DNA of 64,000 nt from an uncultured Gemmatimonadota bacterium (lineage in GTDB: Bacteria; Gemmatimonadota; Gemmatimonadetes; Palauibacterales; Palauibacteraceae). Below, in pieces: positions 3,286 through 62,897 of the stretch. The notes under the pieces were generated by a model. It ran no database searches. It was given only the letters and a program-made list of their open reading frames with translations, and was not told where the DNA came from. Position 1 is the stretch's first letter. Each line of letters starts with the position of its first letter. The DNA lies in the NCBI GenBank assembly GCA_964607465.1, contig CAZSKS010000006.1, forward strand, positions 5,773-69,772, written 5' to 3'. The translations under genes and the position numbers were made by a program.

Positions 3286-3368
3286 GGGGGATGAGGGGCC
3301 CGGGCGGAACGACGGGCGCGACGAGCGACGCACGGACGCGGCACCGATAGACGAGGCGTGACGAGACG

Positions 3369-31768: not shown

Positions 31769-31769
31769 C

Positions 31770-33431
31770 GTGCCCCGTACGGCCCGACGCGCGGGGGCCA
31801 CGACCGTGGCCGGGATGGCGTTGCTCGGCTCGCTGGTCCTTTCGGCCGGGGCGAGCGCGCAGCAGGGGGCGGAAGGGCGCGCGTGCACCCTGGTGCTGGA
31901 GCCCGCCACCGACTCCACGCGGAGCGTCCGGATCCAGGTGGAGACGAACCGCTACGTCACCCACGTGGGCAACGGGCTGCTGGCCACCTGCGGCGACGCC
32001 AGGATGAACTCGGACAGCGCGGTGAGCTACGGGGGCGAGCAGCGGGTGCGGATGATCGGATCGGTGGACTACCGCGACTCGGTGCGGACGCTGACCGCCG
32101 ACACGTTGACCTACTTCCAGGCCGAGGACCGGGTCCTGGCCGTGGGCGACGTGGTCCTCGTGCGCCGGGCCAGCGGCTCCCGCCTCGCCGGGCCGCGGGT
32201 GGAGTTCCAGCGGGTGAGGTCGCCCGAGGAGCGCCGCACGGTGGCCACCGGCCGGTCGCGGCTGGAGGTCTACTCCGATTCCGCCCCACGGGACACGGCG
32301 GCCGGGGACACCGCCTCGCCCGCGGTGGTGGACGCCGACCGGATCGTCATGCTCGGGGAGCGAGAGGTCCGCACCTGGGGGGACGTCAGGATTCGCCGCT
32401 CCGGAGCGGACGCCCGGGCCGACAGCGCCTTCTTCCGTACGGAGGCGGGCGCCGGCCGGCTGATGGGCTCGCCCCGGGTGGAGGGGGAGACGTTCACGCT
32501 GACGGGGGACACCATCTTCACGGGGTTCGAGGAGGGGGAGCTTCGCGACGTGGAATCGGTCGGCGAGGCCCGGGCCACCGGGGAGGACTTCGACCTCTAC
32601 TCGGAACGGATCCGGGGGCGGATGAGGGCGGAGGAGCTGGACCGGCTGTGGGCCTACGGCGCCGGGCGAGCGGTGGCCGTGTCGCCCCCCTACCGCCTGG
32701 CCGCCGATTCCCTCGATACCGCCTTCGCCGCAGGGGAGATGGACACCCTGTACGCGGTGGGGTCCGCCCGAGCGCTGGAGATCGGCGATCGACCGGCGGA
32801 AGATCCCCGCTCCGCCATCTCCCTGACGCCGGGCGAGCAGAGCTGGATCACCGGCGACTCGCTGGTCTTCTCCTTCGCCCGCCGGACGGCCGCTGCCCCG
32901 GTCGGCGGGGCCGACGGTGCGGCCGAGCCCGAGGCGGAGGCCCCTCCCGACAGCGTGGCGGCGGTCCCGGCGGGGGACGAGGGGACGGACGAGGCCGACG
33001 GACCGGCGGGTGAGCGGGAGACCCGCCTCGAGCGGGTCCGGGCGGCCGGCGACGCCCGGGCCTACCACGTTCTGAGAGGAGCGGACGACGACGGGGCGCC
33101 AGCCCGTGACTACCAGCTGGCCCGGGTCATCGAGATCTTCTTCGAGGACGGTGAGGTGGCACGCGTCGAGGGCCAGCAGGCCGTGGGCATCCACCTGGAT
33201 CCCATGGAGAGTGCGGACCGACCGGCGCCCACGCCGCCCGCCGACACGACGGAGGGGGGACGGCCCCCGGTCGACGCCCCGCCCGACACCGCGGGCGAGG
33301 CGCCCCCGGACACGTCAGGCGAAGCGACGCCGGATACGACGCGATACGAGCGGCCGAACTCGCCGGGCGGGGGCGACGTGTCCCCGGAGGGGAGGGGCGA
33401 CGTGTCCCCGGAGGGCGGGGAGCGGTCGTGA
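31770..33431 (+). CDS. OstA/LptA-like periplasmic protein, unusually long (553 aa) with a repeat-rich C-terminal tail
   Basis: GTG 31770, 2 nt after the lptC stop (alternative ATG 31815). Signal peptide ..[17 protein letters not shown]. Repeated OstA-like segments ([24 protein letters not shown].., [19 protein letters not shown]..). Positioned between lptC and lptB. Confidence 0.6.
33276..33347 (+). repeat. Three degenerate 24-nt (8-aa) tandem units in the lptA-like tail
   Basis: Encodes APPDTAGE / APPDTSGE / ATPDTTRY. The units have diverged at the DNA level. Confidence 0.6.
33371..33415 (+). repeat. Perfect 21-nt direct repeat with 24-nt period inside the lptA-like 3' end
   Basis: GGGCGACGTGTCCCCGGAGGG occurs at 33371-33391 and again at 33395-33415, encoding GDVSPEGR / GDVSPEGG. 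Confidence 0.95.
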
Positions 33432-36986: not shown

Positions 36987-38690
36987 ATGACCGAGGGGAG
37001 GCTCACCGGGGAGGAAGTCTCCACGGCCTGGGGGTGGCCGGTCCGGCGGTGGATCCTCCTGGCCGGCGCCCTCCACGTGGTCGTGGGCCTCCTCCTCTAC
37101 GATCCCACCCTCTTCACCGGCGGGGACAACGCCGGCTACATGATCCTGGGGGAGGCCCTGCGCACCGGCGAGGGCTACCGGGACCTCCACCTGCCGGGCT
37201 CCCCGGTCCACACGAAGTATCCTCCCCTCTACCCGGCGCTGCTGGCGGTGCTGGGGTGGGCCGGGGGGCTCCAGCTCTTCAAGCTGGCCTCCCTGGCCCT
37301 GACCAGCGGCGCCGTGCTGGTGGTCGGGTTCCTGGGGCGACGGTGGTTGGGACCGCGTCTGGGGATCGCGGCGGCCCTCCTCGTCGCGGTCAACCCGGTG
37401 CTCGTCTCCTATTCCCACTGGGTCCTCTCGGAAGCTCCCTTCGTCTTCCTCGTCCTCCTCTCCCTGTACGCCTTCGAGCGGAGCCGGCCGTCTTCCGAGC
37501 CCGATCCGGCCGGCTCGCCCCGCCGCGGCTCCCGGGACGCCTGGAGCTGGACGGCCCTGGCCGCCGCCGTGGGCGCCTTCCTGACCCGGACGGCGGGCCT
37601 TCCCCTCCTGGCGGCGGCGGTGCTCCATCCGGCCCTCGCCCGCCGGTGGCGCCGTGCGGGGTGGCATCTGGCGGCGGCGGTGACGGCGGCGGCCGGGTGG
37701 GCCGTGTTCCAGCGGCTCGGGGCCCCCGACCAGGCGGGTTACCTGTCGGAGCTCCTCATGGTGAACCCCTACGATCCCGAGGCGGGACGCGTCGGCGCGG
37801 CGGGGCTCTTCGGCCGGACGGCGGAGAACTTCTGGCGCTACGCCTCCGAGGTGCTGCCGCTTTCGGTGACGGGAGGACGGGGGGACGCCGGGGGCGCCGG
37901 AACCCTGGCCGGCGCGGGAGGGCTCCTCCTGGCGGGCTTCGCGGCCGCCGGCTGGCTGCGCCGGAGCCTGGAGGGGCTGGGTCCGTCCGAGCTGTTCCTG
38001 TTCCTGTACCTGGGCCTGATCTGCGCCTGGCCGTCGGTGTGGACCGACCGGCGGTTCCTGTTGCCGGCCCTCCCCCTGCTGCTGCTGTACGGCCTGGAGG
38101 GCGGGCGTCTCGCAGGCCGGGCCCTGGTGGGGGGGCAGGTGCGGGGGCAGGACGGGGGGGAGGGCTGGCGGAGCCTGGCCCGGGCGGGCGTGCCCGGGTT
38201 GCTGGCGGCGGCCCTCCTGGTGCCCGGGCTGCTGGACGCCGCCCGCTCGGCGCCGGACCGCATGAGGTGTCTGGCCGGCTGGCGGAGCGGGTCGCCGTGC
38301 GTCCCGCCGGCCTACGCCCGCTTCTACGCAGCGGCCGAGTGGGTGGAGGGGAACACCGCCGGGGACGCGGTGGTCGTGAACCGGAAGCCGCGCCTCTTCT
38401 ACTGGCTCTCCGGGCGGCAGGGGGACCTCTATCCCTATTCCTCGGAGCCGTCGGTGGTGCTGGAGGCCATCGAGGCGATGGGGGCGGAGTACGTCGTCGT
38501 CGACGCGATCTCGGGGACCACGGCCCGCTACCTGGTGCCGGCGATCGAGGCCCATCCCTCGCGCTTCGTGGTCCTCCACCGCGAGGAGGGTCCTCCCACC
38601 TGGGTCCTCCGGTTCCGCCGGGAGCCCGGCACGGCCCGGGCCGGGCCGCCCGAGCCGGGAGCCCGCCGGGCGGGGCGAGGGACCCCGTGA
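36987..38690 (+). CDS. Polytopic membrane protein, putative GT-C glycosyltransferase (ArnT/PMT-like)
   Basis: 567 aa, at least 8 predicted TM segments. First-loop GGDNAGYMILGEALRTGEGY..KYPPLYPALLAVLG resembles ArnT/GT39-type proteins. The family assignment is tentative. Confidence 0.5.
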   Translation: MTEGRLTGEEVSTAWGWPVRRWILLAGALHVVVGLLLYDPTLFTGGDNAGYMILGEALRTGEGYRDLHLPGSPVHTKYPPLYPALLAVLGWAGGLQLFKLASLALTSGAVLVVGFLGRRWLGPRLGIAAALLVAVNPVLVSYSHWVLSEAPFVFLVLLSLYAFERSRPSSEPDPAGSPRRGSRDAWSWTALAAAVGAFLTRTAGLPLLAAAVLHPALARRWRRAGWHLAAAVTAAAGWAVFQRLGAPDQAGYLSELLMVNPYDPEAGRVGAAGLFGRTAENFWRYASEVLPLSVTGGRGDAGGAGTLAGAGGLLLAGFAAAGWLRRSLEGLGPSELFLFLYLGLICAWPSVWTDRRFLLPALPLLLLYGLEGGRLAGRALVGGQVRGQDGGEGWRSLARAGVPGLLAAALLVPGLLDAARSAPDRMRCLAGWRSGSPCVPPAYARFYAAAEWVEGNTAGDAVVVNRKPRLFYWLSGRQGDLYPYSSEPSVVLEAIEAMGAEYVVVDAISGTTARYLVPAIEAHPSRFVVLHREEGPPTWVLRFRREPGTARAGPPEPGARRAGRGTP

Positions 38691-39952
38691 GGGTCGTCCA
38701 CGTGGCGACGGCCTTCCCCCGCGACGGGGAGGACGTCATCACCCCCTGGCTGGTGGAGATGATCCGGCGGTCCCGGGAGCGGGGGATCGAGGCCGAGGTG
38801 CTGACCTCCTCCTACCGGGGCTCGGGGGACCACCGGCTGTCCGGCATCCCGGTGCGCCGCTTCCGGTACGCCCCGTCCGCCTGGGAGACGCTCACCCACG
38901 ACGAGACGGCTCCCGACCGGGTGCGGCGCTCACCCCTCCACGCGGCCCTGGTCCCCCTCTACCTGGCCGGCGGGTGCGCCGCCGCCTGGCGGATGGGCCG
39001 GGACGCGCCGGACCTGGTCCACGTCCACTGGCCCGTGCCCCACGCGCTGTTCGGGGCGGCCATGCGGACCGCGTCGAGCGGGCGGACGGCCCTGGTGTGC
39101 AGCTACTACGCGGTGGAGGTGAACTGGGTGCTCCACCGGATGCGCTGGCTCCGGCCCTTCCTCCGGTGGTCGGCCAGGACGGCCGACGCCGTCACGGCCA
39201 TCTCCACGTCGACGGCCGACGCCGTCCGGAAGGTGTCCGGACGCGACCCCAGGATCGTCCCGTTCGCCGCCGCGCTGGGGGAGGAGGAGGCGACGGGTCC
39301 GGGCGGGACGGGCCGGGTTCCCCTCGCGTCGTCGGGTCCCCTCCGGCTGCTCTTCGTGGGGAGGCTGGTGGAGCGGAAGGGGATCGAGGTGCTGGTGCGG
39401 GCCCTGCCGCGCCTCCTGGAGGAACGGGACGTCCGGCTCACCGTCGTGGGCGAGGGCGAGCGGGAGGCGTCCCTTCGGGCGACCGCCCGCGACGCCGGGG
39501 TGGAGGATCGGGTGGAATTCACCGGGTTCGTGTCCCGGGAGGAGCTGTCGCGGCGATACGCCTCGTGCGACATGTTCGTGCTCCCCGCCGTGGTGGACCG
39601 GAAGGGCGACACCGAGGGGCTCGGCGTGGTCCTGCTGGAGGCGCTCCGGCACGAGCGTCCCGTCGTGGCCAGCCGCGCGGGCGGGATCACCGACATCGTG
39701 GAGGACGGCCGGACGGGCTGGCTCGTCCCGCCGGGGGACCCGGCCGCGCTGGCCCGGCGGATCCTGGACGTGGCCGGGCGCCCCGACGACGCGCGCCGGG
39801 TGGCCCGCCGGGGAAGGGAGGTGGTGGAGGAGCGCTTCGGCTGGGAGCGGATCCTGGAGGGGCTCGGCGCCGCCTACCGGGAAGCCCGGGAAGCCCGTCG
39901 GTCGGCCCGGAGAGCGGACGGCGCGCAGGGACGGGAGGACGACGCGGCATGA
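38687..39952 (+). CDS. GT4 (group 1) glycosyltransferase
   Basis: GTG overlaps the upstream stop (GTGA). The C-terminal EGLGVVLLEALRHERPVVASRAGGITDIVEDGRTGWLV is the EX7E motif of GT-B retaining transferases. Confidence 0.85.
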   Translation: MRVVHVATAFPRDGEDVITPWLVEMIRRSRERGIEAEVLTSSYRGSGDHRLSGIPVRRFRYAPSAWETLTHDETAPDRVRRSPLHAALVPLYLAGGCAAAWRMGRDAPDLVHVHWPVPHALFGAAMRTASSGRTALVCSYYAVEVNWVLHRMRWLRPFLRWSARTADAVTAISTSTADAVRKVSGRDPRIVPFAAALGEEEATGPGGTGRVPLASSGPLRLLFVGRLVERKGIEVLVRALPRLLEERDVRLTVVGEGEREASLRATARDAGVEDRVEFTGFVSREELSRRYASCDMFVLPAVVDRKGDTEGLGVVLLEALRHERPVVASRAGGITDIVEDGRTGWLVPPGDPAALARRILDVAGRPDDARRVARRGREVVEERFGWERILEGLGAAYREAREARRSARRADGAQGREDDAA

Positions 39953-40746
39953 CCGGGGACGACCGGTACGAGGCGTGGGTGGCGTCGGAGGCCTACCGGC
40001 GCGAGCGTCCGGAGAAGGCCCGCGTGATCCACCGGCTGTGCCGCGAGGAGCTGCGGGCGGCGGACCGGATCGCGGACCTGGGGTCCGGTACGGGAATCAT
40101 CAAGAAGGAGCTCGAGACGATCACGGGCAAGACCATCACCGGCATAGAGTTGGACACGTCCTTCGTCGAGACGCGGGAGCGGACGGCGGCGGGCGACGTG
40201 ACCCGTCTGCCCCTGGCCGACGGCGTGCTCGACTTCGCCATCCTGAACCACCTGTACGAGCACGTGGGGGATCAGCCGGCGCTCTTCCGTGAAGTCCACC
40301 GGGTGCTCACTCCCGGAGGCGCGGCTTACGTGTCCGCAGGGAACCGGCTCATGGTCATGGAGCCCCATTACCGCCTCCCCTTCCTGAGCTGGCTGCCCCG
40401 GCCGCTGGCGGACCGCTACCTGAGGTGGACGGGGCGGGGAAGGGCCTACCGCGGGATCCGCTTCCGCACCCGGGGCGAGCTCGTTCGGATGATCCGGGAC
40501 GCCGGGCTCCGGATCGAGGACCGGACCCGCCGGGCGCTGGACGACATGCTCGAGGAGGCGTGGGGACCGGGATGGAGCGTCCTCTGGCGGACGATGCGCG
40601 GCCTGCCCGATCCCCTGGTGGAGGCCGGGCTGCGGTGGCTGTCCCCCCAGTGGTTCCTCCTCCTCCGCAGGCCCGCCGACCGCTCCCTGGCCGCCGGGGC
40701 GTCGTCGGACGGACGGGCGGCCGCGGGCCGGGAGGCGCGAACGTGA
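39949..40746 (+). CDS. Class I SAM-dependent methyltransferase
   Basis: ATG overlaps the GT4 stop (ATGA). Motif I IADLGSGTGI, with LDFAILNHLYEHV and LTPGGAAYVS following. Confidence 0.8.
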   Translation: MTGDDRYEAWVASEAYRRERPEKARVIHRLCREELRAADRIADLGSGTGIIKKELETITGKTITGIELDTSFVETRERTAAGDVTRLPLADGVLDFAILNHLYEHVGDQPALFREVHRVLTPGGAAYVSAGNRLMVMEPHYRLPFLSWLPRPLADRYLRWTGRGRAYRGIRFRTRGELVRMIRDAGLRIEDRTRRALDDMLEEAWGPGWSVLWRTMRGLPDPLVEAGLRWLSPQWFLLLRRPADRSLAAGASSDGRAAAGREART

Positions 40747-44969: not shown

Positions 44970-45140
44970 GGGCGGATCTCCGATGGTTCGAGCGGAAAGC
45001 CGGGCGTTCTGAAGGCGGAATCCGGACCCGGAAAGCGTCTGAGCCGGGCGAGAGAGGGACGATGGGGGGTGGAATAGGGGATTGGAGCGGTGGGAGTCCG
45101 GCGGCCGAGAGGAGGAAAGAGAGCCGTGCTGCCGGCCGCT

Positions 45141-45168
45141 AGTTTACATAATGTATATTATGTGCCAT
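45141..45168. other. dif: Candidate dif site (XerC/XerD chromosome dimer resolution site)
   Basis: AGTTTACATAA-TGTATA-TTATGTGCCAT compared with E. coli dif GGTGCGCATAA-TGTATA-TTATGTTAAAT gives 21/28 identities, with a contiguous identical 17-mer CATAATGTATATTATGT (45147-45163). 7/28 G+C. Lies in the only convergent intergenic gap of the window. Confidence 0.75.
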
Positions 45169-45270
45169 GTGGACAACTCGGGGGAAAACCCACTATCGAG
45201 GCTCCTCTCCGGGCATCCTGTCGACATCCTGCGGGCCGCCGCACCCCGGCAGCCCACCTGAGAGCTCCGC

Positions 45271-46032
45271 TCAGCCGCCCGCCGCCGTGTCCCTCGCCGA
45301 CGTGGCCGCGTTCCCTCCGTCGGTGGCCAGACGGGCCTCTACTTCCCCGAGCCGCACGGCGTAGAGCTCGCCCGCCTCCGTGCCCGACGCCTCTTCGGCC
45401 AGCCGCCGGTAGATGTCCCGAGCCTCCTCGAGGCGGCCCGTCGCGGCCAGCAGCGACGCCTTGTCGGCTGCGGCGTCGCGACGCTGGAACGAGAAGCGCG
45501 CCTCCTGCGCCAGCCCGTCGAGGGTCGTGATCGCCGCCGCGCTGTCCCCCGCCGCCGTCTGGGCGTCCGCCAGGAGCGACCGGGCAGCGAAACCGGTGGG
45601 CGTGTCGGGACGGGTGCCGTCGACCACGGGCCGGATGGCCTCCACGGCCTGCGAGGGGCGTCTCTCGCCGATCTGCTGTCGTGCCAGGAGGATCCGGGCC
45701 TCCCGGGCGGACGACGTGCCGTCGAAGCGCTGCAGGAAGGCCTGCAGGCTGTCCGTCACGGCGAGGGCCGGAGCCCCCTGCCGGGCCTGCTGGGCGATCC
45801 GGGTCTGGAGCGTCGAGAGCTCCGCCGAGGCCCGTTCCTCCAGGTTCTGCTGATAGCTGCGCCAGTAGAGGGCCCCGCCCACGGCCACGACGACGAGCAC
45901 CGTGACGAGGACCAGCACCCCGGTGTTCGCCTGTGCCCAGGCGATGAATCGGTTCAGGGCGCGTATGAACGCGTCCTCGTGGTCCGAGGGTCCGGACGGC
46001 CCCTTCCCGGGTCGTGCTACAGCCCCCGGCAT
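45271..46032 (-). CDS. YfgM-like membrane-anchored TPR-like protein (UPF0070)
   Basis: ATG 46032 is preceded by a GGGAGGGGGG Shine-Dalgarno (an upstream TTG 46059 is possible). One TM helix VLVLVTVLVVVAVGGALYW followed by a helical TPR-like domain, as in E. coli YfgM. Confidence 0.65.
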   Translation of the reverse strand: MPGAVARPGKGPSGPSDHEDAFIRALNRFIAWAQANTGVLVLVTVLVVVAVGGALYWRSYQQNLEERASAELSTLQTRIAQQARQGAPALAVTDSLQAFLQRFDGTSSAREARILLARQQIGERRPSQAVEAIRPVVDGTRPDTPTGFAARSLLADAQTAAGDSAAAITTLDGLAQEARFSFQRRDAAADKASLLAATGRLEEARDIYRRLAEEASGTEAGELYAVRLGEVEARLATDGGNAATSARDTAAGG

Positions 46033-46075
46033 CGCGCCCCCCTCCCGGTCCTCGTGCAAATTCGTAGATAGAAGA

Positions 46076-46720
46076 TCATATCGTAGCCAATGACAACAAG
46101 TTGTAGTCGCTAAGCGATTGTCGTCCGTTCAGCTCTTCCAGCTCCACCAGCACCGCCATGCCCGTGACCCGGGCCCCGACCTCCTCCAGGAGGCCGGCGG
46201 CCGCCCGGAGGGTCCCGCCGGTGGCGAGGAGATCGTCGACCAGGACGACCTCGCTCCCGGTCGGCACCGCGTCGACCTGGAGCTCCAGCTCGGCGGTGCC
46301 GTATTCCAGGTCGTAGCGGCGCGTGGCGGTCCGTCCGGGAAGCTTCCCCTCCTTGCGGATGGGAGCCAGCGGGACCCCCAGGCGGTCGGCCAGCGGCGCG
46401 CCCAGCAGGAAGCCCCGGGACTCCACGGCGGCGATCCAGCCCGCCCCCCATCCCTCCGCGGCCTCCGTCAGCCGGGCCAGCACCTCATCGTACAGGTCCG
46501 GATCCCCGAAGATCGGGAACACGTCCCGGAACCGGACCCCTTCCCGGGGGAAGTCGTCGTAGGCGCGCACGGCCGCCGCGATCCGGCCTCCCAGCTCGTC
46601 CGCCGCCGGCTCCGGGGCCGGCACGTAGACGGTCGACGTCCAGGACCCGGACCCGGCGGGTGGCGCGGGATCGTCCCCGTCGGGACGGGGAACGTAGGGT
46701 CCGGAGGCTCGCCAGCTCAC
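46076..46720 (-). CDS. apt: Adenine phosphoribosyltransferase (N-terminal extension uncertain)
   Basis: PRPP motif VVLVDDLLATGGT and DFPREGVRFRDVFPIF. GTG 46720 has an AAGGGAAGG Shine-Dalgarno. GTG 46624 would give the canonical ~183 aa. The ORF is open to TTG 46822. Confidence 0.88.
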   Translation of the reverse strand: MSWRASGPYVPRPDGDDPAPPAGSGSWTSTVYVPAPEPAADELGGRIAAAVRAYDDFPREGVRFRDVFPIFGDPDLYDEVLARLTEAAEGWGAGWIAAVESRGFLLGAPLADRLGVPLAPIRKEGKLPGRTATRRYDLEYGTAELELQVDAVPTGSEVVLVDDLLATGGTLRAAAGLLEEVGARVTGMAVLVELEELNGRQSLSDYNLLSLATI

Positions 46721-46856
46721 GCGCCTTCCCTTCGTGGGTTCCGAGTCTCCGGCCGCCGGGATCCACACCTTCCGGTCGGAGCGGCGATCGGCCCGGCCTC
46801 GACCGGGACGAAGCGGGGACAAACGTACCCGGCCCGCGCGCGGTGCGCCAACCGGC

Positions 46857-47477
46857 TCAGAGGACCCACCGGAGCACCACGAACCCTCCGATGACCAGGA
46901 GAGCCAGGAGGAGGCTCAGGAGGTTGAACCAGCGCTCGATGAAGTCCCGTACCTGGCGGCCGAAGAGCCGGAGGAGCCCGGCCACCAGGAAGAAACGGGC
47001 TCCCCGGCTGACCGCCGAGATCACAAGGAAGGCCGGGAGGGAGACGCTGAAGCCGCCCGCGGCGATGGTGAAGACCTTGTAGGGAATCGGGGTGAAACCG
47101 GCGGCTCCGAGGGCGACGACCAGGTTCTGGCGATACAGCTCCCCGACCCTCGCGTAGACGTCGTGGTATCCGTACAGGTCCAGGATCCACACCCCCACCG
47201 AACGGTACAGGGCCGCACCCACCCAGTACCCCAGGACGCCTCCCATCACCGAGCCCAGGGTGCACAGGGCCGCGAACCGGAGGGCCCGACGCGGCTTGCC
47301 GAGGGCCATGGGAATGAGCAGGACGTCGGGCGGGACCGGGAAGAACACCGATTCGGCCGCGGCCAGCCCGAACAGGGCGGCCGGCCCGCCCGGCCGGTCG
47401 GCCCACGAGAGGACCCAGTCGTAGAGCCGCCGGACCGGGTTCGGCCGCGAGCCGTCGGCTCCCTCCCCCGTCCTCAC
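46857..47477 (-). CDS. YqaA/DedA-superfamily membrane protein
   Basis: GTG 47477 overlaps the pcm stop (GTGA). AAAESVFFPVPPDVLLIPMAL and TPIPYKVFTIAAG motifs. The longer ORF to 47699 would lie inside pcm. Confidence 0.7.
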   Translation of the reverse strand: MRTGEGADGSRPNPVRRLYDWVLSWADRPGGPAALFGLAAAESVFFPVPPDVLLIPMALGKPRRALRFAALCTLGSVMGGVLGYWVGAALYRSVGVWILDLYGYHDVYARVGELYRQNLVVALGAAGFTPIPYKVFTIAAGGFSVSLPAFLVISAVSRGARFFLVAGLLRLFGRQVRDFIERWFNLLSLLLALLVIGGFVVLRWVL

Positions 47478-48118
47478 CAGCCGTCCTCCCCCAGCAGGGG
47501 GACGAACCGCGCCGCCTCCACCGTCTCCCGCTCCCAGGAGCCGTCGCCGCGGACGAGGCGGAGCAGCTCCTGGCCCCGCTCGTCCCCCACGGGCAGGAGG
47601 AGCCGTCCCCCCTCGGCGAGCTGACGGCGCAGCGCGTCCGGTACCTCGGGGGCCGCCGCACCCACCAGGATGACGTCGAACGGTGCCTCCTCGGGCCATC
47701 CCCGGCTCCCGTCCCCGATCCGCACGCTGACGCCCTCCACCTCCAGCTCGGCCAGCGTCCGGTACGCCCGCTCCGCCAGCTCGGAGACCCGCTCGACGGA
47801 GTACACTTCCGCACAGAGACGTGCCAGCAGCGCCGTCTGGTAGCCCGATCCCGTCCCCACTTCCAGGACGCGCTCCCCGCCCTGCAGCCGGGCCAGGCTC
47901 AGGTGCAGCGCGTGGACGGCGGGTCGCGAGATCGTCTGGCCGTGACCCAGCGGGAGGGCCGTGTCCTCGTAGGCCCGGTGGCGCACGCCTTCGGGGACGA
48001 AGAGGTGGCGAGGGACGTCGTCGAACGCATGGAGAACGGCGAGGTCTTCGATCCCGCCCGCCCGGAGCTTCTCCACGAGGCGCCGCCGGTCGCGTCGATA
48101 GTCCTCCGGCGCGCTCAC
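47474..48118 (-). CDS. pcm: Protein-L-isoaspartate O-methyltransferase
   Basis: VPRHLFVPE, GHGQTISRP and VLEVGTGSGYQTA motifs. GTG overlaps the surE stop. Confidence 0.93.
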   Translation of the reverse strand: MSAPEDYRRDRRRLVEKLRAGGIEDLAVLHAFDDVPRHLFVPEGVRHRAYEDTALPLGHGQTISRPAVHALHLSLARLQGGERVLEVGTGSGYQTALLARLCAEVYSVERVSELAERAYRTLAELEVEGVSVRIGDGSRGWPEEAPFDVILVGAAAPEVPDALRRQLAEGGRLLLPVGDERGQELLRLVRGDGSWERETVEAARFVPLLGEDGW

Positions 48119-48915
48119 CCGCCGGTCTCCAGGTCCCAGGACCGGATCCGTTCCATGAGCTCGAAGTTCGTCAGGTCCAGGTGCAGGGGGGTGACCGACA
48201 CGTAGCCGGCCTCGATCGCCCGGAAGTCCGAGTCCTCGCGGCCCGACCAGTGGGACTGGCCTCCACCGATCCAGTAGTACTCCCGGCCCTGCGGGTCCTG
48301 GCTCCGGGTCAGCGAATCCGAATAGACGCGCCGGCCGAGCGCCGTGACCCGCACTCCCTGGACCCGTTCCGGATCGACGTCGGGAAGGTTCACGTTGAAG
48401 AAGGTCTCCTCCGGAAAGCCGTCCCGGCGCAGGAGGGATCCGAGGAGGGACCGGAGGCGGGGGGCGTACCCGTCGAGCCCCTCGTCGCGCTGTCCGACGA
48501 AGGAGACGGCGATGGACGGGATTCCGAGGATGGTGGCCTCCATGGCGGCGGCGACCGTACCGGAGTACAGGACGTCCTCGCCCATGTTCGGGCCGTGATT
48601 CACACCGGAGAGGACGAAATCCGGCGGTTCCGACAGGAGCCTGCGGACGGCCAGGAGGACGCAGTCGGTGGGCGTGCCGTCCACCACGTACCGGCCCTCC
48701 CCGACCCGGCTGGTGCGCAGGGGCCGGTGCATGGTGAGGGAGTGGCTGCTGGCGCTCTGCTGCCGGTCCGGGGCCACGACCACGATATCGCCGAGGCCGC
48801 GAGCCGATTCGGTGAGGAGCGAGAGCCCCCGGGCGTGGATGCCGTCGTCGTTGGTGACCAGGAACCGGAGCGGACGCTCGTCGGAGCCCTTCCCTGGCGT
48901 CTCCGCCGGGCTCAT
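48115..48915 (-). CDS. surE: 5'/3'-nucleotidase SurE
   Basis: LVTNDDGIHARGL N-terminal motif and SGVNHGPNMGEDVLYSGTVAAAMEA. surE-pcm synteny as in E. coli. Confidence 0.93.
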   Translation of the reverse strand: MSPAETPGKGSDERPLRFLVTNDDGIHARGLSLLTESARGLGDIVVVAPDRQQSASSHSLTMHRPLRTSRVGEGRYVVDGTPTDCVLLAVRRLLSEPPDFVLSGVNHGPNMGEDVLYSGTVAAAMEATILGIPSIAVSFVGQRDEGLDGYAPRLRSLLGSLLRRDGFPEETFFNVNLPDVDPERVQGVRVTALGRRVYSDSLTRSQDPQGREYYWIGGGQSHWSGREDSDFRAIEAGYVSVTPLHLDLTNFELMERIRSWDLETGG

Positions 48916-49271
48916 CCGTCGAGGGTCAGGAGCTCCACCAGCTCATCCGCCTCTTGCCGGAGGTCGCGGATCGTGTGGCGGTCCCAGGCCACCCGGGACG
49001 CCCGGGCGAGCTTCCCGTCCCTGCGCAGCTGATCGAGCTTCTCGGCGGCCCCCTCGATGGTGTACTTCTCGGTGTAGAGGAGGTGGCGGAGGAGCTGAAT
49101 CAGCTTGATCTCCTTGCGCCGGTAGACCCGGTTTCCAGCCTGGTTCTTCGAGGGATTCAGGGGCGAGAACTGGGTCTCCCAGTATCGGAGCACGTGCGGC
49201 TTGAGCCCCGTGATCTCGCACACGTCCCCGATGGAGTAGTATTCCTTCGGTGCGATCCGGTCGTCCGCCAC
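48912..49271 (-). CDS. MerR-family transcriptional regulator
   Basis: 119 aa. The N-terminal HTH YYSIGDVCEITGLKPHVLRYWETQF is the MerR-type signature. GTG start 1 nt after the gpsA stop. The stop overlaps the surE start (ATGA). Confidence 0.8.
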   Translation of the reverse strand: MADDRIAPKEYYSIGDVCEITGLKPHVLRYWETQFSPLNPSKNQAGNRVYRRKEIKLIQLLRHLLYTEKYTIEGAAEKLDQLRRDGKLARASRVAWDRHTIRDLRQEADELVELLTLDG

Positions 49272-49272
49272 G

Positions 49273-50286
49273 TCAGCTCCAGCGCTCCGGCTTCGGGTCT
49301 CGGGCCATGAGCTCCGCGAGGGCCTCCCGGGGCTCGACCTCCTCGAACAGGATGGAGTATATCGCCTGGACGATGGGCATCTCCACCCCGTGCTGCCGTG
49401 ACAGGTCCCTGGCGGCCCGGGTCGTGGGCACCCCCTCCACCACCTCCTGCACCTCCTGGAGGGCCTCGTCCCGGCTGGCTCCCCTGCCGATCGCCAGGCC
49501 GGCCCGGCGATTTCGGCTCAGATCGCTCGTGCAGGTCAGGATCAGATCCCCCGTCCCGGCCAGGCCCGACAGCGTCGTCTCCCGCCCCCCCAGCTCCACC
49601 GTGAGCCGCGCCAGCTCCGCCAATCCCCGGGTGATGAGGGCGGCCCGGGCGTTGTTGCCCAGCTCCAGGCCGTCGCTGATCCCCGCCGCCAGGGCGATGA
49701 CGTTCTTGAGGGAGCCGCCGAGCTCGGTGCCGATCACGTCTCCCTGCGTGTACACCCGGAAGTGCTCGTTCTGGAAGAGCTCCTGGCAGCTGCGGGCCGC
49801 CCGGTCATCCTCCGCGGCCGCGGCCACGGCGGTGGGGAGGCCGCGCACCAGCTCGTCCGCGAAGCTCGGGCCGGACAGCACGACGGGACCCCGGAAGGGG
49901 ACGCCGTCCAGCGTATCCTCCAGCACCTGGCTCATGCGGAGGCCGGTCTCGATCTCGATCCCCTTGGACCCGCTCACCAGCAGGGGCCGCTCCGGAAAGC
50001 TCGACGCCGCCTCCCGGAAGACCTCCCGGACCGCGTGCGAGGGGGTCGCCGAGACCACCACCTCCGCACCCTCGAGGGCCCGGTGCATCTCCCCGCTGGC
50101 GTCGAGCGACGGCGCCAGCTCGATCCCCCGGAGATACTTCTCGTTGGTGCCCCGGGAGCGGATCTCCTCGGCCACCGCCGGATCGTGGGCCCACACGGTG
50201 ACGGCGTGGCCGTTCCGGACCAGCACGTGCCCCAGGGCCGTGCCCCAGCTCCCGCCACCGAGGATGCAGACGCTGCGCGGGCTCAT
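49273..50286 (-). CDS. gpsA: NAD(P)H-dependent glycerol-3-phosphate dehydrogenase
   Basis: ILGGGSWGTALG Rossmann motif and GSLKNVIALAAG. Confidence 0.93.
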   Translation of the reverse strand: MSPRSVCILGGGSWGTALGHVLVRNGHAVTVWAHDPAVAEEIRSRGTNEKYLRGIELAPSLDASGEMHRALEGAEVVVSATPSHAVREVFREAASSFPERPLLVSGSKGIEIETGLRMSQVLEDTLDGVPFRGPVVLSGPSFADELVRGLPTAVAAAAEDDRAARSCQELFQNEHFRVYTQGDVIGTELGGSLKNVIALAAGISDGLELGNNARAALITRGLAELARLTVELGGRETTLSGLAGTGDLILTCTSDLSRNRRAGLAIGRGASRDEALQEVQEVVEGVPTTRAARDLSRQHGVEMPIVQAIYSILFEEVEPREALAELMARDPKPERWS

Positions 50287-50924
50287 GCTTCCCCTTTCTC
50301 CTCCCCCCGGACCGACGCGGCTCGAGACGAACGCTCGCGGCCGCCGAAGCTCAGCTCCTCTCCGCGGGCCAGCCGGCTGACGTTGTCACGGTGCGTCCAC
50401 CAGACGAACAGCGCCAGGGCGGCCGTGAACCCGACGGTCTCCAGCGGGGCGTCCAGGAGCCAGGCGAGCACCGGCAGCCCCGTGGCCGCCGTCAGCGAGG
50501 CCATGGAGACCGTGCGGGTGAGGAGGACCATCCCTCCCCACACCAGCGCGCCGGCCGCCGTGGCCACCGGGGCCAGCGCCAGCAGGACACCGGCGGAGGT
50601 CGCCACGCCCTTGCCTCCCCGGAACCGGAGGAAGATCGACCACACGTGGCCACCGATGGCCGCCACGCCGTAGGCGAGCGCCAGCTGGGGCGAGCCGGCG
50701 CCGTCCCACGCCGGGAACAGCCAGACCGGGACGAAGCCCTTCGCCACGTCGGCCACGATCACGGGGACCGCGTAACGCCAGCCCAGCACCCGGAAGACGT
50801 TCGTGCCCCCGAGGTTCCCGCTCCCCCGCTCGCCGAGGTCCACGCCGCCGGCCCTGCCGGCGAGCCAGCTGGAGGGGGTCGAGCCCAGCAGGTACGCGGC
50901 CGCCAGGAAGAGCGCGATCCTCAT
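50283..50924 (-). CDS. plsY: Glycerol-3-phosphate acyltransferase PlsY
   Basis: ATG 50924 overlaps the der stop (ATGA). SGNLGGTNVFR and FRGGKGVAT motifs. 213 aa. The upstream 180 codons of ORF 50283-51467 lie inside der and are rejected. Confidence 0.9.
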   Translation of the reverse strand: MRIALFLAAAYLLGSTPSSWLAGRAGGVDLGERGSGNLGGTNVFRVLGWRYAVPVIVADVAKGFVPVWLFPAWDGAGSPQLALAYGVAAIGGHVWSIFLRFRGGKGVATSAGVLLALAPVATAAGALVWGGMVLLTRTVSMASLTAATGLPVLAWLLDAPLETVGFTAALALFVWWTHRDNVSRLARGEELSFGGRERSSRAASVRGEEKGEA

Positions 50925-52285
50925 CCTCCGCTTCTCCCCCGCTCCCTGACCTTCATCCGGATCGGCGTCCCCTCGAAGTTCCAGCGCTCCCGGAACCCGT
51001 TCTCCAGATAGCGTAGGTAGTGCCCGGCGAGCTCGGAAGGCCGGTTGGCGAAGAGGACGAACAGGGGCGGCTCGACGGCCGCCTGGGTCCCATAGTAGAT
51101 CCTGACGTCCCCGCTGGTCCCCTGGGGGGGCTGCCGGCGAGCCAGCAGCTCCTGCAGGACCTCGTTCACCTCCGACGTGGGAACGCGTCGCCGGCGGTTC
51201 TCCTGCACCTCCAGGGCCAGCTCCAGCCCCTTCCGGACCCGTTTTCCGGTCAGGGCCGACGCCGTCAGGATGGGGACCCGCCGCAGGTAGGCGGCCCGCT
51301 CCCTCAGAGCCTCGGCGAAGCTGGCCACCACGTCCGGGCCCTGCTCGTCGACCAGGTCCCATTTGTTGGCGACGAACACCAGCCCACGCCCCTCCTCCCA
51401 CGCGTCCTGACCGATCCGGAAATCCTGGTTCGACGCCCCCTGCTGGCTGTCCACCAGGAGCAGACACACGTCCGCCCGTCGGATGGCAGCGCTGGCCCGG
51501 AGCCGGCTGTAGAACTCGACGTCGTCGTCCACCCTGGACTGGCGGCGCAGGCCCGCCGTGTCGATCAGGCAGATCGTGCGTCCCTCGAAGGAGAGGTAGG
51601 TGTCGATGGCGTCCCGGGTCGTGCCGGCCTCGTGGTGAACGACGACACGCTCCTCGCCCAGCAGCCGGTTGACGTAGCTCGACTTGCCCACGTTGGGCTT
51701 TCCGATGACGGCCAGGTGGAGGTCCGCGGCCGGCGCCTCGGACGGGCGCCGTCGCTCGGGCAGCTCCTCCACCAGCCGGTCGAGCAGGTCACCGCTACCC
51801 TTTCCGCTGAGGGCGGACACGGGAACGGGCTCGCCGAGGCCCAGACGGAAGAAGTCCAGGTGCGAGAAGTCGTCGGGAGGGTCGTCCACCTTGTTCACCG
51901 CCAGGACGACGGGTCGGCCGGACCGCCGCAGGAGATCCGCCACGTGCTCGTCCACCGGGTGGACGCCGGTGCGGGCGTCCACCACGTGAACGACGGCGTC
52001 GGCGCGCTGGATGGCCGCCATGACCTGGCGCCGGATCTCCTCGTCCATCGCCTGGTCGGGCTGGTGGACCAGGCCGCCGGTGTCCACGAGCATGAATTCC
52101 CGGCCGGCCCAGTCCGCCGGGGCGAACTGACGGTCACGCGTGACCCCGGAGCGCTCGGCCACGATGGCCAGGCGCCGTCCCAGGATCCGGTTGAAGAGCG
52201 TGGACTTGCCGACGTTGGGTCGACCCACGATCGCCACCACCGGGAGGCGGGCCGGGGCGTCCACGGGGGCGGATCCCGGCGTCAC
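50921..52285 (-). CDS. der: Ribosome-biogenesis GTPase Der (EngA)
   Basis: Two tandem G domains (GRPNVGKST.. DTGG; GKPNVGKSS.. DTAG) plus a KH-like C-terminus. Confidence 0.95.
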   Translation of the reverse strand: MTPGSAPVDAPARLPVVAIVGRPNVGKSTLFNRILGRRLAIVAERSGVTRDRQFAPADWAGREFMLVDTGGLVHQPDQAMDEEIRRQVMAAIQRADAVVHVVDARTGVHPVDEHVADLLRRSGRPVVLAVNKVDDPPDDFSHLDFFRLGLGEPVPVSALSGKGSGDLLDRLVEELPERRRPSEAPAADLHLAVIGKPNVGKSSYVNRLLGEERVVVHHEAGTTRDAIDTYLSFEGRTICLIDTAGLRRQSRVDDDVEFYSRLRASAAIRRADVCLLLVDSQQGASNQDFRIGQDAWEEGRGLVFVANKWDLVDEQGPDVVASFAEALRERAAYLRRVPILTASALTGKRVRKGLELALEVQENRRRRVPTSEVNEVLQELLARRQPPQGTSGDVRIYYGTQAAVEPPLFVLFANRPSELAGHYLRYLENGFRERWNFEGTPIRMKVRERGRSGG

Positions 52286-52367
52286 GGCTGGCGCGGGACC
52301 GCCCCGGGAGCGTCGGACGCGACGTCCTCCATCCGTCTCCCCCCCAGGTGGTCGCGGGCGCGGTTCG

Positions 52368-53732
52368 TCAGGAGCCCGCCCGGACCTCCCCGTACCGGAA
52401 GCCCGCGAGGGCCTCGTCGGCGCTCACGTCGAACTCGAAGCGCTGGCTCGTGCCCTCCGAGGGGAGCTCCACGGTGAGCTCCTGCGAGGTCACCGTGCTC
52501 CCGCTGCGGTCGAAGAACTCGAAGGGGATGGTCACGGTCTGTCCCGCCGCGCCGCGAGCGGTGATCTGCCCCTGGACCCGCCAGGTGCCCGCCGACTGCT
52601 GGACCAGGTCCACCTGCGGGATCTCCAGCGGCATGCCCTGCAGCTGGGGGAGGATCTGCTGGACCCGCTGGGTGTTCCCCTGGCGATCGTGGGACTGCAT
52701 CAGGGTCCGGTAGAGATCCTTCTGGTAGGGGTACCAGTCGACCAGCGTGTCGCTGATCGCGGCGGCCCGACCGAAGTTCTCCAGGCCCATGTTCACCTGG
52801 GCCAGGTTCTGCATCGCCAGCTTGTCGTAGGGTCGCAGCTCGCGGGCCCTCTCGAAGGCGAGCCGCGCCCCGTCGTAGGACTGCGACTCGATGAGCCCCA
52901 GGCCCGCGTTGAACCACTGCTCGAAGGTCAGGTCGTCCCGGTCCAGCAGACCGTCGAAGACCGCCTGGGCGCTGTCCTCCTGGCCGACGGTACGCAGGCT
53001 CACGGCGTAGTTGATGGCCGCGTCCACGTCGGAGGGATGCTCGCCGAGGTAGCTCCGGTAGATCTCCAGCGACTCCTCGGTGCGGCCCTGCTGCCGGAGG
53101 AGCTCCGCCAGGTTGATCGAGGCGGCCCGGTACTGGGCCGTGTCCCGGGCGACCTCGCGGGAATGCCGGTACAGCTCCTCCGCCCGCTCGGCGTTGCCGC
53201 GCTGCTGGTGCAGGAGGGCCGCGTTGTTGACCGACCGGGCGTCGTCGTAGATGACGTTCGCCTTCTCGAACTCCTCCAGCGCCGTGGAGTCGTCACCCGA
53301 CTGGTAGGCGCGAATGCCCGCGTTGTAGGCCTGGACCCAGGCGTTGTTGCGGGCCGTCTGGACCAGGTCACGGCAGCCCGGCTTCATCTCCACGAATTCC
53401 TCGAACCTCGAATTGGCCGCTTCGAAGTCTCCGAGGCCGAGCTGTGCCCGACCGGCGAGCCACCGCGCCGTGGCGTCCTCTTCGTTCTGCTTCATGGCCA
53501 GCTGGACGCGGGTCAGCGCCTGCTGGTAGTTCGACGCCGCTTGCTGTGGCGCCACGGTGTCCAGCTGGCTGCCCTGGTCGATGAGCTCCTCGGCCTGACG
53601 GGTCACCTCGGTTCCCTGGAGCTGACACTCCTGGGAACCCTCCTCCTGGGCGTCCAGCCCGGTCACTCCGAGGGCGGCCGCCCCCGTCACCAGGGCCAGA
53701 AAGCCGACGCTACGCATGAATCGATCGAGCAC
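52368..53732 (-). CDS. Secreted tetratricopeptide-repeat protein with a C-terminal beta-rich domain (function unknown)
   Basis: Signal-peptide-like MRSVGFLALVTGAAALGVTG, then multiple TPR-like A..Y..AL..P repeats. The last ~90 aa (WRVQGQITARGAAGQTVTIPFEFF..) are non-TPR. Confidence 0.6.
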   Translation of the reverse strand: MLDRFMRSVGFLALVTGAAALGVTGLDAQEEGSQECQLQGTEVTRQAEELIDQGSQLDTVAPQQAASNYQQALTRVQLAMKQNEEDATARWLAGRAQLGLGDFEAANSRFEEFVEMKPGCRDLVQTARNNAWVQAYNAGIRAYQSGDDSTALEEFEKANVIYDDARSVNNAALLHQQRGNAERAEELYRHSREVARDTAQYRAASINLAELLRQQGRTEESLEIYRSYLGEHPSDVDAAINYAVSLRTVGQEDSAQAVFDGLLDRDDLTFEQWFNAGLGLIESQSYDGARLAFERARELRPYDKLAMQNLAQVNMGLENFGRAAAISDTLVDWYPYQKDLYRTLMQSHDRQGNTQRVQQILPQLQGMPLEIPQVDLVQQSAGTWRVQGQITARGAAGQTVTIPFEFFDRSGSTVTSQELTVELPSEGTSQRFEFDVSADEALAGFRYGEVRAGS

Positions 53733-53831
53733 GAATCACTCCCTTCTGAGGTCTCCACTCGTCCGACGGTTCCGGCAGGGCGATACCGCTCGGCACAGCT
53801 CTTCCTGATTCCGTCCGGCGGCTCATACCCG

Positions 53832-53858
53832 GGGGACGGGCCGGCGGTCCCCGTCCCC
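53832..53858 (-). terminator. GC-rich hairpin immediately after the thrC stop
   Basis: GGGGACGGG (53832-53840) pairs with CCCGTCCCC (53850-53858), a 9-bp stem with a 9-nt loop. It ends 4 nt from the thrC stop codon (53862-53864). No U-tract. Confidence 0.35.
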
Positions 53859-53861
53859 GGC

Positions 53862-55004
53862 TCAATAGACCAGCTGGTGCGCGGTATTGAACAGGACCAC
53901 GGTCTCCCCCGCCCCCAGCGCGCCGTCCGTCGCCAGCCGCCGGGCGGCGGCCAGGGTCGCTCCGCCCTCGATGCTGGCGCTGATCCCCTCGCGCTCGCCC
54001 AGGGCACGGGCGCCCTCCTCCATCTCGCGGTCGGCCACCGCGACCGCCCCGCCGCCCGACTCGCGCAGGGCCCGCAGGATGAGGAAGTCCCCCAGGGCCG
54101 CCGGCACCCGGAGGCCCCAGGCGTCGGTTCGGGCGTCGGACCACGGATCGGCCTCGTCAGCGCCCGCCCGCCACGCCCGGACCACGGGGGCGCACCCCTC
54201 GCTCTGCACGGCGTAGAGCCGGGTCCGGGGGGCGAGGATCCCCAGCGCGGCCAGCTCTCCCAGCACCTTCCACGTGGCGATGAGGCCCGTGCCGCCGCCG
54301 GTGGGATAGACGACGGCGTCGGGAGGCCGCCAGCCGAGGGCCTCGGCGATCTCGAGCATCATCGTCTTCTTGCCCTCGAGGCGGTATGGCTCCCGGAGGG
54401 TGGAGACGTCGAAGGCTCCGGTCTCCTCGGCGTGGCGGGAGGCCCGCTCGCCGCACTCGGTGATGAGCCCGTCCACCTCGACCACCTCCGCTCCCAGGCG
54501 CCGACACCGTCGCCGCACGCCCTCCGGCGTGTCGGTCGGGAGGAACACCGTGGCCGGCAGTCCCGCCCGGGCCGCGTAGGCGGAGAGAGCCGCGCCGGCG
54601 TTGCCGGCGCTCGGGATCACGAAGCCTCCCGCTCCGTCCCGGGCGGCGCGGGTGACGGCGGCGGACAGCCCCCGGTCCTTGAAGCTGCCGGTGGGGTTCC
54701 GTCCCTCGTCCTTGACGGCCAGCCGGAGTCCCAGCTCGTCGCCCAGATCCGGCAGAGGGACGAGGGGCGTGCCTCCCTCCCCCAGGGTGACGGGGTCCTC
54801 GTCCTCGCGCAGGGGCAGCAGCTCCCGGAAGCGCCACATCCCCCCGGACCGACGGGCCCACCGGGTCCTCAACTCCTCCCCGTCGACGCCGTCGGTGCCG
54901 TAGCGGGCCAGGAGCGGCTTCCCGCACGCCGGGCACACGGTGACGCCGGGGGCCGCCTCCTCCAGACGGCCGCAGGCCCCACAGCTGAGCTTCTCCCGGA
55001 ACAT
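53862..55004 (-). CDS. thrC: Threonine synthase (short form with N-terminal Cys4 zinc ribbon)
   Basis: CGACG...CPACG N-terminus, PLP lysine motif NPTGSFKDRG, and SAGNAGAALSAYAA. Confidence 0.85.
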   Translation of the reverse strand: MFREKLSCGACGRLEEAAPGVTVCPACGKPLLARYGTDGVDGEELRTRWARRSGGMWRFRELLPLREDEDPVTLGEGGTPLVPLPDLGDELGLRLAVKDEGRNPTGSFKDRGLSAAVTRAARDGAGGFVIPSAGNAGAALSAYAARAGLPATVFLPTDTPEGVRRRCRRLGAEVVEVDGLITECGERASRHAEETGAFDVSTLREPYRLEGKKTMMLEIAEALGWRPPDAVVYPTGGGTGLIATWKVLGELAALGILAPRTRLYAVQSEGCAPVVRAWRAGADEADPWSDARTDAWGLRVPAALGDFLILRALRESGGGAVAVADREMEEGARALGEREGISASIEGGATLAAARRLATDGALGAGETVVLFNTAHQLVY

Positions 55005-55005
55005 C

Positions 55006-56478
55006 CTAGGCCCCCTCCTCCGTCGTCTCCCCGTCCTCCCGGGCCCCGACGCTCACCTCCAGCCCCCGTTCCAGCCGCCGCAGGGTGCGGTCCCGACCGA
55101 GCAGGTACGCCACGCCCGGCAGCTCGGGCCCCTGGAGCTCACCCGTCAGGGCCGCCCGGAGGGGATGGTAGAAGGCCGCGCCCCCGACCTCCACCCTTCC
55201 CTTCGCCTCCTCCAGCGCCCGGCGGATGCCCTCCCGGTCCCAGGCGCCCAGCCGGGACCAGGCCGTCCGGGCCGCCTCCAGGACGCCGGCCGCCTCCGGA
55301 GCCTCCAGGGCGTCGCGGGCCTCCTCCCGGACATCCGGCTCCGGCAGGAGCTTCCGCAGCTCCTCGACCGCCTCGGTCAGCAGCTGGATCCGGTCTCCGA
55401 GGACCTCCGCGGCCGCTCGCAGGTCCCGGGGTGCCAGCTCGAGCCCGGCCGACGCGAGGTACGGCCGCAGGCGCTCGGCCAGCCGGTCGGGGGGGTCCGC
55501 GGCGATGTGCCGGCCCGAGAGCCACCGCATCTTCTCCGGATCCACCTCCGTGTCGGCCCGGCCGATCCGCTCCAGGTCCGTCTCGGCCACGATCCGCTCC
55601 CGGGAGAGGACCTCGTCCCCCGAGGGGCTGGACCAGGCCAGGAGCGACAGGTAGTTGACGACCGCGTCCGGGTGGTAGCCCCGCTCGCGGAAGGCCAGCA
55701 GCCCCGGGGCGTCGTCCCGCTTCGAGAGCCCGCCGCCGCCCGGCGCCAGCACCAGGGGGATGTGGGCGAACTCCGGCGGCTCGGCGTCCAGCGCCCGGTA
55801 GAGGAGGACCTGCTTCGGGGTGTTGGACAGGTGGTCCGCGCCACGGATCACGTGGCTGATCTTCATCACGAGGTCGTCCACCACGACGGCGAAGTTGTAG
55901 GTGGGGCGCCCGTCGGAGCGGAGGATGACCATGTCGCCCAGCTCCGCCCCCTCGAACTCGACTTCGCCCCGTACGCGGTCCGACACCCGGATCGTGCCGG
56001 CGTCCACCCGGAAGCGGACGCTGGGGGTGCGCCCTTCCGATCGACGGGCGGCCTCCTCCTCGTCCGACAGGTCCCGGCACCGCCCGTCGTAGCGCACCGG
56101 CTCGCCGGCCGCCACCGCCGCCTCCCGGCGGGCCTCCAGCTCCTCTTCCGTGCAGTAGCAGTGATACGCGCGGTCCCGCTCCAGCAGCCGGCTGGCGTGG
56201 TCCCGGTAGAGGGGCAGCCGCTGGCTCTGTCGGTAGGGGCCGTGCTCCCCGCCGACCTCCGGCCCCTCGTCGGGATGCAGCTCCAGCCAGCGGAGGCCCT
56301 CCAGTACTGCGCGTCCGGCCTCTTCGGAGGTCCGCTCGAGGTCCGTGTCCTCGAAGCGGAGGACGAAGTCCCCTCCGTGACGCCGGGCGAAGGCCCAGTT
56401 CAGCACCGCCGTGCGGGCGTTGCCCAGGTGGAGCTCCCCGGTCGGGCTGGGCGCGAAGCGGGTGCGGACCCGCGTCAC
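55006..56478 (-). CDS. gltX: Glutamate--tRNA ligase
   Basis: GTG 56478 is the first start after the uvrC stop. RFAPSPTGELHLGNAR (HIGH) and GLSKR (KMSKS). TAG stop at 55006-55008. Confidence 0.92.
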   Translation of the reverse strand: MTRVRTRFAPSPTGELHLGNARTAVLNWAFARRHGGDFVLRFEDTDLERTSEEAGRAVLEGLRWLELHPDEGPEVGGEHGPYRQSQRLPLYRDHASRLLERDRAYHCYCTEEELEARREAAVAAGEPVRYDGRCRDLSDEEEAARRSEGRTPSVRFRVDAGTIRVSDRVRGEVEFEGAELGDMVILRSDGRPTYNFAVVVDDLVMKISHVIRGADHLSNTPKQVLLYRALDAEPPEFAHIPLVLAPGGGGLSKRDDAPGLLAFRERGYHPDAVVNYLSLLAWSSPSGDEVLSRERIVAETDLERIGRADTEVDPEKMRWLSGRHIAADPPDRLAERLRPYLASAGLELAPRDLRAAAEVLGDRIQLLTEAVEELRKLLPEPDVREEARDALEAPEAAGVLEAARTAWSRLGAWDREGIRRALEEAKGRVEVGGAAFYHPLRAALTGELQGPELPGVAYLLGRDRTLRRLERGLEVSVGAREDGETTEEGA

Positions 56479-56524
56479 GCCGGGCCTCCGCCGCCGGGAC
56501 GGCCGGCGGGTCGCCGAGCCCGGG

Positions 56525-62409: not shown

Positions 62410-62413
62410 GGCG

Positions 62414-62884: not shown

Positions 62885-62897
62885 GCCCGCACCGCCG

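Follow-up and report, generated by a model that had tools for sequence, protein, structure and literature searches.

Between two convergent genes of an uncultured Gemmatimonadota bacterium lies a short AT-rich palindrome that an earlier note had read as a dif-like XerC/XerD site. Is this the chromosomal dif of the organism, i.e., the place where its replication arms meet, or a look-alike such as an integration junction of a mobile element, the target of a single recombinase, or a palindrome with an unrelated role? We examined the site in the whole stretch of DNA analysed here (64 kb; hereafter, the window) and in related loci from genomes and metagenomes.

A single dif-like site in a GC-rich window

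The site and its parts are as follows:

45141-45168, minus strand: predicted 28-bp dif site (XerC arm, central region, XerD arm), ATGGCACATAA-TATACA-TTATGTAAACT
45158-45168, minus strand: predicted XerC-binding arm, ATGGCACATAA
45152-45157, minus strand: 6-bp central (strand-exchange) region, TATACA on the minus strand and TGTATA on the plus strand
45141-45151, minus strand: predicted XerD-binding arm, TTATGTAAACT

The plus strand at 45141-45168 reads AGTTTACATAATGTATATTATGTGCCAT, as had been reported, and has an 11+6+11 architecture in which the arms form an imperfect inverted repeat. The arms are perfectly complementary over their inner 7 nt, whereas their outer parts are unlike each other (ATGGCA vs AGTTTA, read inward). 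The G+C content of 25% given in the earlier note was correct (7/28, against 72.1% in the window), and the lowest-GC 28-mers of the whole window are found here. The 18-mer core ACATAATGTATATTATGT occurs once in the 64-kb window with up to three mismatches allowed (the other match is the same site on the opposite strand), while shuffled sequences yielded an expectation of 0.00 matches. Similarly, the idea that a best-match scan would return this site alone held within the 64-kb window, where runner-up 28-mers reached at most 17/28 against every reference dif tried. No second dif-like site or half-site was detected in the 45 kb to the left or the 19 kb to the right, and the best other 28-mer matched the site itself at 15/28. 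A full-text literature search found no paper containing the exact 18-mer core.

To assign the arms, both strands were compared with eleven dif sequences from Kono et al. 2011 (PMC3025954), against which the minus strand matched at 19-22/28 (20-22/28 for nine of them). On this strand, TTATGTAAACT is identical (11/11) to the XerD arm of the B. subtilis, M. xanthus, G. aurantiaca, K. rhizophila, and S. wolfei dif sites, and the same string occurs 66 times in Kono's dif table; the right arm of the plus strand reaches only 6-8/11 against the reference XerD arms. We therefore assigned XerD to 45141-45151 and XerC to 45158-45168 on the minus strand, an assignment that the orientation of the site in relatives confirmed. 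The earlier note had instead aligned the plus strand with E. coli dif (GGTGCGCATAATGTATATTATGTTAAAT), reporting 21/28 identity and a contiguous identical 17-mer at 45147-45163. Both counts were reproduced with an E. coli sequence checked against the Kono 2011 supplement, but the plus-strand arm assignment was not upheld, since it is the minus strand that carries the XerD arm. Because the site is nearly palindromic, both of its strands align to reference dif sites, and the 17-mer identity with E. coli results from the palindromic inner arms plus a TATACA that reads TGTATA on the opposite strand. These two hexamers are reverse complements, each one substitution away from the palindromic TATATA of Bacillus-type dif.

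Compared with known sites, the 28-mer shares with E. coli dif (GGTGCGCATAA-TGTATA-TTATGTTAAAT) the 11+6+11 architecture and the inner arms CATAA / TTATG, as well as a non-coding location, a position at a skew shift-point (locally here), converging GGGNAGGG motifs, and an XerD orthologue. In the conventional orientation, however, identity to E. coli dif is 20/28, and only the opposite strand gives 21/28 and the 17-mer; the central region (TATACA vs TGTATA), the end of the XerD arm (AAACT vs TAAAT), and the outer XerC arm all differ. The dif sites of B. subtilis (ACTTCCTAGAA-TATATA-TTATGTAAACT), M. xanthus, and G. aurantiaca, which have the same XerD arm, differ in the XerC arm and the central region, with 21/28 overall. 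For G. aurantiaca, the predicted site is AATGCGTATAATACATGTTATGTAAACT, and its distance from the skew shift-point amounts to 0.011% of the replichore (Kono et al. 2011, PMC3025954).

Local skew, gene orientation, and gene content

Three features describe the surroundings of the site:

1-45140, plus strand: left replichore-like arm, with G>C (skew +0.055), nearly all genes on the plus strand, and GGGNAGGG mostly on the plus strand
45169-64000, minus strand: right replichore-like arm, with C>G on the plus strand (skew -0.061), nearly all genes on the minus strand, and GGGNAGGG mostly on the minus strand
44970-45270, no strand: non-coding gap of 301 nt between a GT2 gene (plus strand, ends at 44969) and a TPR_21/YfgM-like gene (minus strand, ends at 45271)

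Genes in the window were called by GC3, and the gene ends so obtained (44969 and 45271) agree with the 301-nt convergent non-coding gap described in the earlier note, which had also asked whether the GC-skew extremum of the whole chromosome falls near the site. Within the 64-kb window, the cumulative G-C maximum is at 45184, 16 nt past the site. A positive-to-negative change of skew, combined with convergent genes, characterizes a terminus rather than an origin, with the proviso that skew, gene orientation, and oligomer skew are confounded in the 64 kb seen, as nearly all genes are co-oriented with the putative direction of replication, and that a long block of convergent genes could mimic a terminus locally.

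All annotated genes of the window are core chromosomal genes. Those on the left include nuo subunits, sucCD, ndk, fabD, fabG, fabF, ispF, a DedA-family gene, xerD, kdsB, pyrG, kdsA, and rpoN, with GT2, LPG-synthase-like, and YfhO-like genes on the flank adjoining the site, and those on the right are TPR_21, apt, surE (2.9 kb from the site), gpsA, der, gltX, and uvrC. No phage, plasmid, or mobile-element genes, and no integrases besides xerD, were found among the annotated genes. This gene content bears on the possibility that the site is an attL/attR junction of a Xer-exploiting element (an IMEX or a CTX-like phage) or a plasmid-type cer/psi/pdif site, since elements of this type integrate at dif and have dif-like sites of their own. 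Besides the core character of the neighbouring genes, the lack of a second dif-like site or half-site in the window speaks against such an origin, as do a pattern search of 2.9 million viral contigs (0 matches) and a plasmid BLAST with the 500-nt region (no match).

Several other observations were made in the window. Rfam and tRNA scans of its whole length returned no Rfam families and no tRNA genes, and no promoter-like or terminator-like site was found at the 28-mer. A purine- and G-rich tract (…GGGACGATGGGGGGTGGAATAGGGGATTGGAGCGGTGGGAG…GAGAGGAGGAAAGAGAG) occupies 45040-45125 on the plus strand, directly beside the XerD arm. Coding-like GC3 or a long open frame characterizes two plus-strand ORFs, 24158-26125 (655 aa) and 31650-33431 (593 aa); neither had a match in Pfam, and the former had none in NCBIfam. 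Exact-sequence look-ups with the GT2 and GpsA proteins matched no record. The regions 37024-40425 and 58420-60227 contain no gene passing the GC3 filter and may hold genes of atypical composition.

Conservation of the site and its position in relatives

When 185,579 species genomes (GTDB) were scanned for the pattern, 113 loci were obtained, mostly with one match each (a few palindromic sites in Paenibacillus are counted on each strand). High-GC Gemmatimonadota account for two of these loci, again with one match per genome: Gemmatimonadota bacterium K_2_bin.6 (L006, a MAG) carries the identical 28-mer (28/28), and Ca. Palauibacter ramosifaciens (L058) carries a 26/28 version in which the arms and their orientation are unchanged. 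Its two differences are at symmetric positions of the central region, which reads TGTATA (3283-3288 of that locus) vs TATACA in L006 and at 45152-45157 of the window. Both sites adjoin the TPR_21 gene downstream of surE, as in the window, and synteny with the window extends over the surE side of both loci (apt was also detected in L006), with flanking genes at about 70% DNA identity. The TPR_21 protein itself is only 39% identical, and the non-coding DNA around the 28-mer cannot be aligned in this comparison.

This contrast matters for the alternative that the 28-mer is a chance AT-rich palindrome, a transcription terminator, or an operator of an unrelated DNA-binding protein. The site is palindromic, it lies in a convergent intergenic gap, and a DnaA-box-like motif abuts it (see below), all of which such a reading would accommodate. 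Yet chance predicts 0.00 matches in shuffled sequence, and conservation at 28/28 and 26/28 beside a protein of 39% identity, with the conserved positions following the dif consensus, would be hard to reconcile with a fortuitous palindrome or an unrelated operator. The terminator or hairpin version was rejected because the predicted fold is weak and no better than shuffles (-4.6 kcal/mol, z = -0.48) and a T-tract is absent at the site. We thus regard this family of explanations as barely conceivable, and continue with the reading of the 28-mer as a dif site.

A metagenome scan with SurE yielded 80 further loci, of which 26 carry a dif-like site, always on the surE strand and 2.0-4.3 kb downstream of surE. 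Where at least 5 kb of downstream sequence was present, the fraction was 15/21; the six remaining long loci have no site at the syntenic position, so that this placement is frequent without being universal. The local cumulative skew peaks at a distance of up to about 150 nt from the site in 19 of the 26 related contigs. Averaged over its positions, the site has an information content of 1.46 bits, compared with 0.24 and 0.37 bits in its flanks, and the conserved positions in relatives are those of the dif consensus. The orientation relative to surE is also retained, e.g., in L120 (ATGGCGCATAA-GATACA-TTATGTAAACT) and L149 (AATGCGCATAA-TACATG-TTATGTAAACC), and the XerD arm is the surE-distal arm in L120, L134, L145, L147, L164, L188, and L189. 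The position of dif is unusually syntenic across these 26 contigs (loci L114-L189; 45141-48915 in the window), although their SurE proteins are only 53-64% identical. The flank opposite surE is not conserved among relatives. L116 lacks a dif-like site at the expected distance from surE, although a local skew maximum occurs at that point.

Synteny also returns us to the integration-junction or plasmid-site explanation. The left flank of the site (GT2, LPG-synthase-like, and YfhO-like genes) is non-syntenic in L058, where none of the window's left-flank genes is present, as might be expected had an element inserted on that side. The right flank, by contrast, is syntenic across many relatives, and taken with the viral, plasmid, and gene-content searches above, this leaves an Xer-exploiting element as an exceedingly improbable source of the site.

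Polar motifs converging on the site

The octamer GGGNAGGG is the FtsK-orienting motif (KOPS) of E. coli. In the window, where its density is about 1 per 1.7 kb, copies pointing toward and away from the site number 32 and 5, respectively, which ranks first among 42 composition-matched permutations (arrangements of 6 G, 1 A, and 1 N). The same comparison in 27 related loci with a dif-like site gave 109:13 and rank 2 of 42. When pooled (141:18, total 159), GGGNAGGG ranks 11th of 2999 XXXNXXXX motifs; the ten motifs above it each have at most 75 toward-pointing copies (toward plus away, at most 83), and most of them contain CTA or CTAC, which suggests coding bias. An unbiased skew ranking of 6-8-mers in the window alone was uninformative because codon bias (CTG words) dominates it. 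The polarity of GGGNAGGG supports KOPS-type guidance toward the site, while not being fully separated from coding-strand bias, and suggests that the E. coli-type KOPS word and FtsK guidance are used in Gemmatimonadota too.

An XerD orthologue 21 kb from the site

The window encodes one Xer-family recombinase:

23030-24013, plus strand: xerD, tyrosine recombinase predicted to act on the site (TIGR02225, XerD equivalog)

The earlier note had placed an XerD-type gene at these coordinates, 21 kb from the site, and the profile scores agree. The ORF scores 345.8 bits on TIGR02225 (cut-off 329.6) and 311.6 on the XerC equivalog, below the cut-off of 335.15, and the best PDB match of its product is E. 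coli XerD (1A0P, E = 8.6e-62). No second Xer paralogue, xerC, or ftsK was found within the 64-kb window.

With one Xer-family gene in the window, the site might be served by XerD alone, or by XerD with a partner other than XerC, in the manner of XerS, XerH, or XerA systems. In single-recombinase systems (XerS/difSL, XerH/difH, XerA/dif), the gene lies directly adjacent to its site, whereas the nearest recombinase gene here is 21 kb away. This distance is nevertheless unusually short for xerD, which is mostly located near the origin (Kono et al. 2011, PMC3025954), and to that extent favours such a system. However, the recombinase passes the XerD equivalog cut-off and fails those of XerS (98.9, cut-off 267) and XerA (206.3, cut-off 220), and the clear difference between the outer arms is in line with two proteins of distinct specificity. 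We consider an arrangement without XerC highly improbable, and favour a conventional XerC/XerD target.

A DnaA-box-like 9-mer beside the site

One further motif touches the 28-mer:

45168-45176, plus strand: DnaA-box-like 9-mer TGTGGACAA (reverse complement TTGTCCACA), sharing the final base of the 28-mer at its XerC-arm end

DnaA boxes form the TTATCCACA family, with the form TTGTCCACA in high-GC actinobacteria, and position 3 of the box is known to be degenerate. The reverse complement of 45168-45176, TTGTCCACA, presumably fits this family, and the only variable position of the 9-mer across relatives corresponds to box position 3. In the 64-kb window, this is the only match to TGTGGANAA / TTNTCCACA on either strand (0.37 expected from shuffles). 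Among 25 related loci (within L127-L189), 19 have an exact match 15-16 nt after the XerD arm, and of the 27 matches in 302,773 nt of related loci, 21 are no more than 80 nt from dif. By eye, versions with one mismatch were seen close to the 15-16-nt offset in several of the loci without an exact match there. On the XerC side, the box abuts the arm in the window and lies 10 nt from it in L114 (5483-5491), which is the closest SurE relative of the window. It is absent in L120 and, unlike in the window, in L006 and L058, whose sites have no adjacent TGTGGANAA motif. In other phyla, a dif-adjacent 9-mer was present in 2 of 108 loci, i.e., without association with dif. The relatives that were inspected have the box downstream of convergent genes, so that it is not a promoter element in them.

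Two other interpretations of the motif were tried and rejected. As a KOPS-like genome-wide polar motif, TGTGGANAA fails because its core is balanced on the plus strand (TGTGGA 14 vs TCCACA 15) and the full motif matches once in the 64 kb. If the dif-plus-box module were inverted in this lineage, with TTATGTGCCAT as the XerD arm, arm matches to relatives would be 15/22, compared with 19/22 for the non-inverted module. Inversion is also countered by L120, whose site links the window to its relatives in the non-inverted orientation, and by L006 and L058, where the arms have the same orientation relative to surE.

The sequence TGTGGACAACTCGG is common to the window and L138 (14/14). In L150 (13774-14617), and likewise in L158, L161, L172, L176, and L156, about 800-900 nt beyond dif and box contain no ORF passing the GC3 filter, and in the L150 clade a conserved pair of minus-strand genes, of 240 aa and about 790 aa, comes next.

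The recurrence of the box suggests, tentatively, that dif in this Gemmatimonadota lineage may be a composite terminus element that includes the DnaA-box-like 9-mer (TGTGGANAA = TTNTCCACA) rather than a bare 28-mer, a possibility that we rate as rather unlikely. Unlike the DnaA-box clusters of the origin, datA, and DARS, a single box is found here, at a putative terminus and at a fixed offset from a Xer arm, and a full-text literature search found no description of a dif plus DnaA-box-like arrangement. If DnaA or another factor binds the box, dimer resolution, or the arrest of FtsK at dif, could be linked through it to the replication initiator or to a terminus protein. If bound, the box could also serve an accessory factor, comparable to ArgR, PepA, and ArcA, which are accessory factors at the plasmid cer and psi sites.

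A probable chromosomal dif and its implications

The architecture of the site, its uniqueness in 64 kb, the local switch of skew and gene orientation, the convergence of polar motifs, the conservation in relatives, and the presence of xerD are observed here, and this sequence evidence makes it very probable that the 28-mer serves an uncultured, high-GC Gemmatimonadota-like bacterium as its ordinary chromosomal dif, located where the replication arms meet. The reading proposed in the earlier note is thereby strongly supported, by the single occurrence in the 64 kb, the window skew extremum 16 nt away, and the retention of the site at a syntenic position. The local skew switch would then coincide with the global terminus, and XerC and FtsK would be encoded elsewhere in the genome.

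Mechanistically, the following is taken from the established XerCD/FtsK model. Homologous recombination would fuse sister chromosomes into a dimer, and FtsK, steered toward dif by polar GGGNAGGG-type motifs, would bring two dif copies together at the closing septum. There, XerC would bind ATGGCACATAA and XerD would bind TTATGTAAACT, both on the minus strand; FtsK would activate XerD to catalyse the first strand-pair exchange across the 6-bp central region, and XerC would exchange the second strand pair, giving two monomers.

Since dif is already a well-known kind of element, and a Gemmatimonas dif was predicted computationally in 2011, the site leaves the understanding of Xer recombination unchanged. 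It adds a variant from a poorly studied phylum to the known dif sites, and as a probable marker of the replication terminus it would help to orient replichores, to check assemblies, and to anchor peak-to-trough growth-rate estimates from metagenomes. The only part that is possibly new is the box kept beside dif, which offers a testable lead toward a link between initiation and termination or toward a Xer accessory factor in this lineage.
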